Shown here one piece after another: positions 45,001-51,000 of a stretch of 64,000 bases of DNA. Made by a program: the position numbers. Numbering within the stretch: position 1 is the stretch's first letter; each line of letters starts with the position of its first letter. The DNA is from Escherichia coli (GTDB lineage: Bacteria; Pseudomonadota; Gammaproteobacteria; Enterobacterales; Enterobacteriaceae), in assembly GCF_050320075.1 (NCBI RefSeq), contig NZ_CP190018.1; one strand, 5' to 3'.

Positions 45001-48000
45001 CTGGAGCTTGGCGCAGATGACTACCTGATTAAGCCCTTTGATTTTACGGAGCTGGTTGCACGTGTAAGAACCCTACTGCGCCGGGCACGCTCGCAGGCCG
45101 CAACAGTCTGCACCATCGCCGATATGACCGTTGATATGGTGCGCCGGACCGTGATCCGTTCGGGGAAGAAGATCCATCTCACCGGTAAAGAATACGTTCT
45201 GCTTGAGTTGCTGCTGCAACGCACCGGAGAAGTGTTACCCAGGAGTCTTATCTCGTCCCTGGTCTGGAACATGAATTTTGACAGTGATACGAATGTGATT
45301 GATGTCGCCGTGAGACGTCTGAGAAGTAAAATTGATGATGACTTTGAGCCAAAACTGATCCATACCGTTCGCGGTGCCGGATATGTCCTGGAGATCAGAG
45401 AAGAGTGAGGTTCAAAATTTCCCTGACCACACGCCTGAGCCTGATTTTTTCTGCGGTGATGCTTACGGTATGGTGGTTATCAAGTTTTATCCTGATTAGC
45501 ACCCTTAATGGCTATTTCGATAATCAGGACCGCGATTTTCTGACAGGTAAACTTCAGCTCACCGAAGAGTTTCTTAAAACAGAGACGTTCAGGAACAAAA
45601 CGGATATTAAGTCATTATCAGAAAAAATAAACGATGCGATGGTGGGGCACAATGGCTTATTCATTTCTATAAAAAACATGGAAAATGAAAAAATTGTTGA
45701 ACTCTATGCCAAAAATTCTGTTGTTCCAGCGGTCCTGCTTAATAAGTCGGGTGATATTCTCGACTATATGATCCAGACGGAAGAAAATAACACCGTGTAC
45801 CGCAGTATCTCGCGGCGGGTTGCCGTGACGCCGGAACAGGGTAAAAGCAAACATGTCATCATTACGGTTGCCACGGATACTGGGTATCACACCCTGTTTA
45901 TGGACAAACTCAGTACCTGGCTGTTCTGGTTCAATATCGGTCTGGTCTTTATTTCTGTTTTTCTGGGCTGGCTGACCACACGTATTGGTCTGAAACCGCT
46001 ACGGGAAATGACCAGTCTGGCTTCCTCCATGACCGTACACAGCCTGGATCAGCGTCTAAATCCCGATCTGGCTCCGCCGGAAATCTCTGAGACCATGCAG
46101 GAGTTCAATAATATGTTTGATCGCCTGGAGGGGGCATTCCGGAAACTGTCAGATTTCTCGTCTGACATCGCGCATGAGCTGCGCACACCAGTCAGTAATC
46201 TGATGATGCAGACGCAGTTTGCACTGGCTAAGGAAAGGGATGTTTCGCATTACCGCGAAATTTTATTCGCTAACCTGGAAGAACTGAAAAGGTTGTCACG
46301 AATGACCAGTGACATGCTTTTTCTGGCACGTTCAGAGCATGGTCTGCTGCGGCTGGATAAACATGATGTGGATCTGGCAGCCGAACTGAATGAATTACGT
46401 GAGTTGTTCGAGCCCCTGGCAGACGAAACAGGAAAGACAATCACGGTTGAAGGAGAGGGCGTTGTTGCCGGAGACAGCGATATGCTCCGACGTGCTTTCA
46501 GTAACCTGCTTTCCAATGCAATCAAGTATTCTCCCGATAACACCTGTACAGCGATACACCTTGAGCGTGACAGTGACTGTGTGAACGTGATGATTACGAA
46601 TACGATGTCCGGCCAGGTTCCCGCTAATCTGGAACGTTTGTTTGACCGGTTCTATCGCGCAGACTCATCAAGGTTCTACAACACGGAAGGCGCGGGGCTG
46701 GGATTATCAATTACAAGGTCGATCATTCATGCTCACGGCGGCGAGCTGTCAGCAGAACAGCAGGGGCGTGAAATTGTGTTCAAAGTGCGCCTGTTAATGG
46801 ATTAATCCCGTTGTTCAGGAGAAACCTGGAAGGTGACAAAATTGTCATCATTCAGTCACGCGATAAACAGAGGCGGTTTTTTATAATTATTCATAAATCA
46901 GGAGCAGCGTGATAACACAATCACCTGGTTCCTGGAGTGATGATTAACCCGCCCTGAGATCAACTGCTTTCTCTGTTATAAGCCATTGATTGTTTGGGTA
47001 TGTAAACACCGGAGACCCAACCATGAAAAAGATTCTCGTATCATTTGTTGCCATTATGGCTGCCGCTTCATCTGCCATGGCTGCAGAGACAATGAACATG
47101 CATGACCAGGTAAATAATGCACAGGCACCTGCCCACCAGATGCAGTCATCTGCTGAAAAAAGTGCAATTCAGGGAGACAGCATGACAATGATGGATATGA
47201 GCAGTCACGATCAGGCCGCAATGTCCCATGACATGATGCAAAACAGCAATTCTGCTGCCCACCAGGACATGGCTGAAATGCATAAAAAAATGATGAAAGC
47301 TAAACCCGGAGCTACCAACGAAACAGCAAAGTCATTTTCTGAAATGAGCGAGCATGAGAAGGCCGCAGCTGTACATGAGAAGGCGAATAATGGTCAGTCT
47401 TCCGTTGTTCACCAGCAGCAGGCTGATAAGCATCGCAGTCAGATCACCCAGAATTAACCCGCAGCTCCACTTGTTAGACCCTCATTTGACGCCGAAGTCA
47501 CTGGCTTACGCTCCCGTCCGGGAGCGTTTTTTTTCCCATATATCAAACTTTAACTCTGAAGAGGTGGAAGTATCTGACCAACTGTAAGCGACTCGTCAGA
47601 ACCGTATTGATATTTACTGAGAGCTCAGATCAACTTTCCAGGGCAACAGATCGCGTACCCGGTTTGCCGGCCAGTCCTGGATATGTTCAATGACGTAACG
47701 CAGCCACTTTTCTGGCTCCACATTGTTCAGACGGCATGTGCCGATCAGCGAGTACAACACCGCCGCATGTTCACCACCGCTGTCGGAACCCGCGAACATC
47801 CAGTTTTTCCGGCCTACGGCCACTCCCCGTAAGGCGTTCTCTGCGATGTTGTTGTCGATTTCCACCCAGCCATTACTGCAGTACACGTTCAGTGCATCCC
47901 ACTGTTTCAGCAGGTATGCGAACGCTTTTGCCGTATCTGAGTGACGCGACAGTGTTTTCATCTGTTGCTGTATCCAGTCATACAGTGACTGCATCAGTGG

Positions 48001-51000
48001 CGCGGCTCTGGCTTTTCTTGCCGCCAGACGCTGTTCTGCTGAACAGCCCCGGACCTCTGCCTCGATGGCATACAGTTCACCGATACGCTGCAGGGCTTCC
48101 GTGGTGATGTAGGTGGGCGCTCTTGCATGCACATCGTGGATTTTTCTCCGGGCATGAGCCATACACGCGGCTTCCGTTATTCTGCCGGATTCGTATAACG
48201 CCCGGTAACCACCGTAAGCATCGGCCTGAAGCACACCGCTGTAACCGGCCAGGTGATTTTGTGGATGGATACCTTTCCGGTCCGGACTGTACGCGAACCA
48301 GACCGCCGGGGGCATCTGTGAACCGGCGTTACGGTCATCACGGACGTAGACCCACAGCCGGGCTGTCCGGGTTTTACCGCTGCCCGGCTCCTGGACCGGG
48401 ACGGGGATATCATCAGCATGGACTTTACCGGGCATCAGCACATACTGGCGCAGGACGTCATACAGCGGCTCCAGCAGTTCAGCAACAGCACCTGTCCAGC
48501 GCCCCAGTGTGGCACGGCTCAGCTCCACTCCCTGACGACGGTATATTTCTGACTGGCGGTATAACGGCAGATGGTCTGCATATTTCCCGGTGACAACATG
48601 GGCCAGAAGCCCCGCTCCGGCATAACTGCGTGCAATGGGTTTTGAAGGTACTGGTGCCTGCACGATATGGTCGCACCGGCAACAGGCCTGTTTCGGACGT
48701 TGTGTTTCGATAACCTTAAAGGCGCTGCTGATAAGCTCCAGTTGCTCTGACACATCACATCCCAGAGAACTGAGTTCACCACCACAGGCAGGACAGCATT
48801 CCTCTTCCGGCCGGATAACCCGGGTTTCACGGGGAAGTGAGGCCGGTAACGGTTTACGGGCTGAAGACTGGCGCAGGGCGGATGGCAGTACCGGGTCATA
48901 TTGCTCACCCAGCGTTTCCGCCATTTCTTCCTGAAGTGCGCTGATTCGCTCCTGTGCTTCCTGTATCTGCCGTTCGGTTTTTGCACGAAGTTTTTCTGAG
49001 CTTTTACCGAACTGCATACGTTGCAGTTTCGCAACCAGCGCCTTCAGCCGGTTGATTTCGGAAGCATAAGCCGCCACCCGCTGTGAGAGCAGGCGGTTGT
49101 ATTCAGCCATCTGGCGGATGGTGTCCTGTTGCGTCTGCAACAGTGCCCGCAGGCGGGCGTTCTCATGAGCAAGTGAGGTGTCCATATCCTCACTTTACAA
49201 CGGGTTATATGCGGATTCCAGCGCGTTCCGTTCGTTTCGGGTGCTTCCAGTTGATACCTTCAAGAAGCATGGATAACTGAGCCGGAGTAAGGTGCACCTT
49301 GCCGTCACGGGTGACTGGCCAGACGAAGCGGCCCCGCTCCAGGCGTTTGGTGAAGAGGCACAGTCCGTCACTGTCAGCCCACAACACTTTTATCTGGTCA
49401 CCCCGGCGTCCGCGGAAGATGAACAGGTGTCCGGAGAACGGGTCATCCTTCAGGACGTTCTGAACTTTTGATGCCAGGCCGTTAAAGCCATTTCGCATAT
49501 CGGTGATACCTGCAACCAGCCAGATACGCGAACCTGCAGGGAGAGATATCATCAGTGGCTGCTCCCTTTTATTTCGCGGATAAGTGTCTGTAATAACGCC
49601 GGCGTCAGTTTACCTTTAAGCCTGAGAGTTCCGGCCGGCAGAACCAGCTCACAACACAGACTGTCGGACGGTGTATTTATCTGCTCTGGTTCCTGTGCGG
49701 GGGCCGGGATTTTATTATCCGGCTCCGGCGTTAACGTCACGGGAAGCAGTGCCGGCATATTTTTTCCGGAAGGCAGCAGGCCACCTTTCCGGTATTGATG
49801 GCGCCAGTTGAAGAGCAGGTTATCGTTGATTCCGTTTTCCCGGGCGATCTGCGCCACACAGGCTCCGGGCTGCAGTGACTGCTCCACTAAGGCGATTTTA
49901 AACTCATAAGGGAAGTTGGGCCGCCGGGGACGTTTTTTTACCACGGGGGCTTCGGATATAACGGTGCTTTCAGGACGTACGACTGGTACCGTGGAAAATT
50001 GTCCGTAAAGGCAGGCATCAAGTTCCTGCTCCGACATGCCTGCGGGCAAAGGCCACGAAAGGCCAGCTCTCCGAAAGCGCACGAACATACTACAAACTGT
50101 TGATTTTGGTACACCCAGGCGACGCCCGGCCACAACCCGGGGTAAATGTTCTTCAAAGTGAAGACGTAAAGCTTCAGTGATCCAGGTCCGGTGTTTCATA
50201 CGATAGTGTCCATTAAAAATGATGGACATTATTTTTGTAGAGCCGGAGGAAACAGACCAGACGGTTTAAATGAGCCGGTTACGACCAACACTGTCACGTA
50301 ACGCCAGATAACTACAAAAACACCTTTTTCCTCCTGTAAATTGCAGTTCCTGCAAGAACATCAAGGTATAATGTTGGAACAGCGTGTGATACACACTTAG
50401 CATCATGTTTTGTATGTGTTTTTTTAAAACTTTACAACTTTAAAGTCTTTTTCAGGTTAAAGGATACAACTTTAATGTCTCTACACAATTGCAGCGAAGT
50501 CGTCCTGAGCTATTTCCTAAAGATGAAAATTATTAGAGTCGCATTAAAAATGAGCTAATTTTGATAGTGGTTATCTTGTGATTATTTTCTAATGAGCCTG
50601 TGAACTGAGACCCTCCATGCTTAATATAAGGTGGAGGGAAAGGTGATTAAAACTCCCCCAGTGGCCAGATCTTTATAAAATATGAACAGGTTGAAAAAAT
50701 CAGCAACTTAGCTGTTTATTTATACTTAACCACTATGCATTAATGCTGCGTTATTTCATGATACCTAAGAAAAACCAGCGTTACGCAAATAATCAACGCT
50801 GGTTTTATCCGGTACGTTGCAATTATTTTTTAGCAGAACCCGCTTCTAATATTGAAACGATTGAGAACAACGTAAAGCATACCGCTCCCAAACCGACCAG
50901 AACCCGCGAAGGAATAAAATATCCCATATCGGTCTGCGCCATTTCCGCAAGAAACGATGCCAGGAAAAGGCAAAACAGGCAGGTGAAGACGGGAATCATC

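Follow-up and report, generated by a model that had tools for sequence, protein, structure and literature searches.

A putative recent ISCro1 insertion with a mismatched target duplication downstream of pcoE in an Escherichia coli silver/copper resistance island

The window considered here, a stretch of 64,000 nucleotides from the Escherichia coli contig NZ_CP190018.1 (assembly GCF_050320075.1), contains a Tn7-like sil/pco island with an insertion sequence close to one of its ends. A preliminary description, made from the sequence of the window, placed a three-gene IS66-type element between pcoE and the left end of the island, flanked at 47576-50290 by an 8-bp repeat in which 7 of the 8 bases agree. 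The element was taken to be a simple, relatively recent insertion whose target duplication has since acquired one substitution, and its outward-facing end was thought to be able to influence the Tn7-like terminal repeats. Is the arrangement indeed the product of a single transposition event? If so, did the mismatch in the duplication arise by later mutation, or was it made when the element inserted? And does the insertion have any consequence for pcoE or for the island?

The features of the locus are collected in Table 1. All three minus-strand ORFs of the element are intact and their products score well over the curated cut-offs for the IS66 proteins TnpA, TnpB and TnpC: tnpA reaches 296 bits against NF038385, tnpB 129 bits against NF033819, and tnpC 478 bits against NCBIfam NF033517 (E=2e-143; cut-off 180), with zf-IS66, LZ_Tnp_IS66 and IS66_C as further domains of tnpC. 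The start codon of tnpB overlaps the tnpA stop (ATGA), so that base 49552 is common to both genes. The termini form a 22-bp imperfect inverted repeat, complementary at 16/22 positions (47584-47605, GTAAGCGACTCGTCAGAACCGT; 50261-50282, ACGGTTTAAATGAGCCGGTTAC). Its arms start with GTAAGCG and GTAACCG, which fits the ends of IS66-family elements (about 20-30 bp, imperfect, GTAA(G)CG), and the left arm occurs only once within the window, the chance expectation being zero. A TnpC-type DDE transposase, overlapping tnpA and tnpB genes upstream on the same strand, end repeats and an 8-bp duplication are all features of the IS66 family.

Table 1. Features at and around the insertion, in window positions
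Feature	Position	Strand	Details
tnsA, N-terminal fragment	23976-24596		followed by IS1 at 24598-25365
pcoE, intact, untouched by the IS	47023-47457	+	annotation of a near-identical genome; weak SilE-family match
pcoE intrinsic-terminator-like hairpin and T run	47508-47535	+	stem 47508-47527
Target-duplication copy, pcoE side, GACCAACT	47576-47583	.	last base T, ancestral A
ISCro1 (IS66 family), complete, 2699 bp	47584-50282	-	genes read toward pcoE
Terminal inverted repeat beside tnpC, GTAAGCGACTCGTCAGAACCGT	47584-47605	+	IRR by the usual convention, tnpA at left
tnpC, 523 aa, DDE transposase	47614-49185	-	Pfam DDE_Tnp_IS66 (PF03050) E=2.5e-103, full profile
tnpB, 115 aa, IS66 accessory protein	49205-49552	-	Pfam PF05717 E=5e-40; NCBIfam NF033819
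tnpA, 225 aa, IS66 accessory protein, helix-turn-helix	49552-50229	-	NCBIfam NF038385 E=1e-88; Pfam HTH_Tnp_1
Terminal inverted repeat beside tnpA, inward GTAACCGGCTCATTTAAACCGT	50261-50282	-	IRL by the usual convention
Target-duplication copy, island-end side, GACCAACA	50283-50290	.	identical to the ancestral target
Tn7-like sil/pco island, left (pcoE-side) end	50432-50487	-	TnsB-site-like repeats 50464-50479 and 50432-50447

The 2699 bp of the element are 100% identical to many copies on E. coli chromosomes, E. coli plasmids and Salmonella plasmids. RefSeq labels these identical copies 'IS66-like element ISCro1 family transposase', together with tnpA and tnpB; in a genome with an identical copy, tnpA is annotated as WP_001339397.1. 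A near-full-length copy is present in 1492 of 5426 complete E. coli genomes, and the collection holds 14204 matching places, complete and partial, with identical copies at many different sites. The copy in the window is full-length and apparently functional; its intact ORFs, the identical copies at many sites and the number of matching places are indirect signs that it can transpose. Its IS66 ORFs and domains, its end repeats and its identity with ISCro1 bear out the earlier reading of a three-gene IS66-type element, and the 7/8 flanking repeat is present as it had been described.

Whether that repeat is a target duplication can be judged from islands that lack the IS, and uninterrupted islands exist in large number: they were found in over 650 E. 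coli genomes and on upwards of 370 plasmids, and all of them read ...GTATCTGACCAACACTGTCACG... at the junction. A probe made of the joined flanks, with one 8-mer removed, found the uninterrupted arrangement at full length in 569 E. coli genomes; on many plasmids the match runs only to the island end. Three fetched empty sites, from E. coli WWCOL-236, E. coli WCHEC020031 and Serratia plasmid R478, read ...GAAGTATCTGACCAACACTGTCACGTAACG..., and the empty sites fix the boundaries of ISCro1 at exactly 47584-50282. The target was thus GACCAACA, present once in the empty site and twice in the occupied one, with an A to T change in the pcoE-side copy. A single contiguous GACCAACA at the exact junction of related islands agrees with a simple insertion, as had been proposed, and shows the two 8-mers to be a duplication rather than pre-existing sequence.

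Could the element instead have arrived by recombination between ISCro1 copies, or by a neighbouring rearrangement, with the resemblance of the two 8-mers a coincidence? A flanking duplication is absent from 9 of the 27 other complete copies that were compared, so such rearrangements are common for ISCro1. Yet the site, minus the IS and one 8-mer, exactly equals more than 1000 uninterrupted islands, and the chance of at least 7/8 agreement at one fixed position pair is only 25/65536, or about 4e-4. The empty-site comparison effectively refutes an arrival by recombination, which we regard as exceedingly improbable.

How usual is an 8-bp duplication for this element? Metagenome and viral contigs, scanned for the exact pattern of the IS end, gave 127 loci; genome contigs gave one contig, which was irrelevant. 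The 127 loci, taken together with records fetched from E. coli, Klebsiella and Citrobacter, provided a comparison set of 27 further copies that are complete and non-redundant and can be read on both flanks. A perfect 8-bp duplication was found in 17 of the 27 copies, and a duplication of 8 bp is usual for ISCro1. In nine copies no duplication was present (3-8 mismatches), a state that IS-IS recombination or nesting would be expected to leave; a 7/8 duplication was seen in none of the 27. No target consensus was found in 18 reconstructed empty sites, which showed only a slight A/T enrichment at the centre of the duplication. BLAST matches extending 5-22 nt past the IS had raised the prospect that the flanks were shared or that one target was strongly preferred; this was rejected as an alignment artefact when four were fetched and their flanks were unrelated.

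The insertion is recent and lineage-specific, for among the 5426 complete E. coli genomes it was found in only 2: YZLc1-3, from a chicken in China, and Ec-U3, from human urine in Burkina Faso. A probe consisting of the IS and both flanks was covered at 100% in only three genomes. YZLc1-3 and Ec-U3 have junctions identical to those of the window, the T included, and also have in common an IS1-truncated yhiM; over 50 kb, the window and YZLc1-3 show 2 differences. To date the insertion, a genome was sought that has this IS1-truncated yhiM background and lacks ISCro1, and none was found. The IS body has 0 differences in 2699 bp from the common ISCro1 variant, and the adjacent 3.7 kb of the island has 0-2 differences from other islands. 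These counts uphold the earlier view that the insertion is relatively recent, and the insertion usefully marks the E. coli clone to which YZLc1-3 and Ec-U3 belong.

DDE transposases insert by staggered cleavage of the target. On that chemistry, which we infer for this element, ISCro1 transposed into the spacer that separates the pcoE terminator from the left end of the island; staggered cleavage and gap repair would then have duplicated the 8 bp of GACCAACA, as is usual for ISCro1, and the pcoE-side copy now reads GACCAACT. That ISCro1 transposed into this spacer, duplicating 8 bp, recently, in one lineage and without hitting a gene, is in our judgement very probable. The counter-point to so simple an account is that the duplication agrees at 7/8 positions, not 8/8, and that the mismatch lies exactly at the IS junction.

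When was the mismatch made? The T was not a pre-existing polymorphism, since it is absent from uninterrupted islands: a 64-nt probe of the T-variant junction found no perfect full-length match, and its full-length matches, in 666 E. coli records and on 371 plasmids, each have exactly one mismatch. The preliminary description had assumed a duplication that later acquired a substitution. The sequence shows the change from A to T relative to the ancestral target; a post-insertion timing is less secure, an event during insertion being about equally plausible. A later substitution is a priori unlikely because the IS and the adjacent island are so little diverged, and we estimate the chance of a random substitution within the 16 bp of so young an insertion at well below 1%. 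The changed base directly adjoins the IS end, and only two positions do so. Because the insertion is young and the changed base is the one at the junction, an insertion-associated origin of the T is about as credible as later mutation, and the two stand at roughly even odds.

An origin during the insertion itself, rather than by later point mutation, is favoured by the position of the changed base, by the improbability of a random hit and by the absence of the T from more than 1000 uninterrupted islands. It might have come about if the stagger was 7 bp and a single T was added, or if one nucleotide of the donor flank was retained at the tnpC-proximal end, on the 5' strand, and then fixed after replication or mismatch repair. 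A junction anomaly of this kind was seen in 0 of the 17 other duplication-bearing ISCro1 copies. The base adjoining the GTAAGCG end also differs among copies, which places the T outside the IS. We know of no documented mechanism by which IS66 elements leave an extra or retained base at a junction. On balance we give an insertion-time origin slightly less than an even chance.

Other ISCro1 insertions lie close by in related islands. In strain 025542-1, whose chromosomal background differs from that of the window by 3.6%, an independent ISCro1 is inserted 23 bp nearer the island end, in the same orientation and with a perfect duplication (AGATAACT). On the Klebsiella pneumoniae plasmid pCAV1042-183 an ISCro1 variant lies about 20 bp past the pcoE terminator, again in the same orientation and with a duplication (AATAATAA). 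There are thus three independent ISCro1 insertions in one orientation at 20-63 bp from the pcoE terminator. The cluster is not regarded as significant, because the dispensable target is about 200 bp long and was the only region searched.

The insertion of 025542-1 also ends in AACT directly against the IS, and a derivation of the junction in the window from it was considered. This was rejected: the chromosomal flanks show 3.6% divergence, 2 sites distinguish the IS bodies, and a deletion cannot produce the right-hand flank. It is rather doubtful that the mismatch is a footprint of IS66 chemistry and that the stretch 20-63 bp past the pcoE terminator is a preferred landing zone for ISCro1. If either were true, it would be a small clue to the poorly understood mechanism of IS66 elements, and a junction mismatch that recurred across many ISCro1 insertions could inform IS66 end processing. 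The junction-adjoining mismatch in a young duplication is the only mildly interesting point of the locus.

What, then, of the surroundings? The insertion point is 48 bp downstream of the stem of the pcoE terminator, and the placement of the element between pcoE and the left end of the island agrees with what had been described. The tip of the island lies at about 50487, as plasmid-borne islands stop matching at window position 50487/50488 (query 697/698). The distance from the element to the Tn7-like repeats had been put at about 100 bp; it is 150 bp to the nearest clear repeat (50432-50447) and 205 bp to the tip. The insertion is in a non-coding spacer, where it interrupts no gene and has no evident effect, and no Rfam family was found in 46000-53500.

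A functional insertion would be one that alters the expression of pcoE or, by way of the nearby end, makes the Tn7-like island more or less mobile. Elsewhere ISCro1 can alter the expression of adjacent genes, for example at the afa/dr promoter region in ST131 (PMC8764528), which is a precedent for such an effect, and the IS in the window does lie within the left arm of the island. Here, by contrast, it is downstream of the pcoE terminator, with genes converging on pcoE, and no promoter-like site was found at its outward-facing end. Both clear end repeats are intact, and neither lies closer than 150 bp. Intact tnsABC and target-selector genes are not found in the island, which is unable to move on its own because tnsA is truncated and tnsB/C/D are missing owing to IS1. 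The influence on the Tn7-like end that had been suggested is unsupported, given an intact nearest repeat and an island already without most of its tns genes, and we consider a functional effect of either kind very unlikely. The insertion is of little consequence: it is one more IS in an already decaying, immobilised sil/pco island.

In terms of known systems, this is a routine ISCro1 insertion in a known silver/copper resistance island. Under the ISfinder rule, an element counts as the same IS as the reference when its nucleotide identity is 90% or more and its transposase identity 95% or more. We used as reference the ISCro1 copy at 50-52.7 kb of pCROD1 from Citrobacter rodentium ICC168; ISCro1 was not found on pCROD2 or, by annotation, in the first 50 kb of pCROD1. 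The two elements have the same length (2699 bp) and the same tnpA-tnpB-tnpC order, and align end to end (2699/2700 bp) with 98.1% nucleotide identity, with 49 substitutions and 2 gaps, which is isoform-level variation only. Amino-acid identity is 98.2% for TnpA, 99.1% for TnpB and 98.3% for TnpC. The tnpA-proximal repeat reads GTAACCGGCTC in the window and GTAAGCGTCTC in the C. rodentium copy. Because of this end-to-end likeness in nucleotide and protein sequence, the element can be classed as an isoform of the known IS, ISCro1. IS679, ISEc8 and ISEc23 are enterobacterial members of the IS66 family that share the three-ORF layout, GTAAGCG-type ends and an 8-bp target duplication; they are separate ISs of lower identity. 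ISCro1 itself was first named in C. rodentium ICC168, in which it is the most expanded IS (PMC3072379).

The island spans about 23818 to about 50487 of the window and lies in the E. coli chromosome between yhiN and yhiM. TnsB-site-like repeats occur at both of its ends, three on the tnsA side at 23826-23892 and two on the pcoE side at 50432-50479, with 13-14/16 agreement to a shared 16-mer. The yhiN-yhiM interval is a known insertion site of the Tn7-like sil/pco island, Tn7/sil/pco or 'CHASRI' (PMC8417528). The window island shares with it the chromosomal site, the sil and pco operons and the Tn7-type end repeats. Unlike the known island (PMC8417528), it is degraded: IS1 truncates tnsA and replaces tnsB/C/D(E), and ISCro1 has been added.

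The Tn7-like sil/pco island has been altered by IS1 at its tnsA-proximal end, where tnsA is truncated by the element and tnsB/C/D(E) have been replaced by it, leaving a fragment of a TOPRIM gene as the sole remnant ahead of copM/silE; the island is therefore immobilised. This end of the island overlaps the 3' end of yhiN, so that the last ~12 codons and the stop codon of yhiN are supplied by the transposon end. The 5-bp duplication of the island has a one-base ambiguity, being either TTGCA or ATTGC. Beyond the pcoE-side end of the island, both yhiM and a DUF4049 gene are truncated by a second IS1. 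This layout, shared by E. coli strains YZLc1-3 and Ec-U3, implies that DNA directly outside the island was lost in an IS1-associated deletion.

Features of the island, its flanks and the comparison loci
Feature	Sequence	Position	Strand
yhiN ORF, annotated	window	22630-23853	
Overlap of the tnsA-proximal island end with yhiN	window	23818-23853	
tnsA fragment	window	23976-24596	
IS1 inside island	window	24598-25365	
yhiM remnant	window	50823-51164	minus
Second IS1	window	51180-51947	
DUF4049 gene remnant	window	51934-53034	
ISCro1, independent insertion	L004 (E. coli 025542-1)	4524-7222	
ISCro1, independent insertion	L136 (K. pneumoniae pCAV1042-183)	about 3272-5970	
ISCro1 without flanking duplication	L016, L017, L023, L064, L069, L087, L119, L132, L140		

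The independent ISCro1 insertions in L004 and L136 are 20-63 bp 3' of the pcoE terminator, a region corresponding to about 47540-47600 and 50283-50320 of the window. Both are in the orientation of the window copy and have perfect 8-bp duplications (AGATAACT and AATAATAA, respectively). The DNA near this terminator could be a local hot spot for ISCro1, or could merely be the sole dispensable DNA there. Among the complete copies of ISCro1 from E. coli, viral and metagenome records, roughly one in three lacks any flanking duplication, which suggests that recombination between IS copies or nested insertion is frequent for this element.

In the common E. coli variant of ISCro1, the tnpA-proximal terminal repeat has diverged (GTAACCGGCTC..., window 50261-50282). 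In contrast, the copy from C. rodentium ICC168 plasmid pCROD1 (L139 4730-4751) has retained GTAAGCGTCTC... at this repeat, and its ends are therefore more symmetric.
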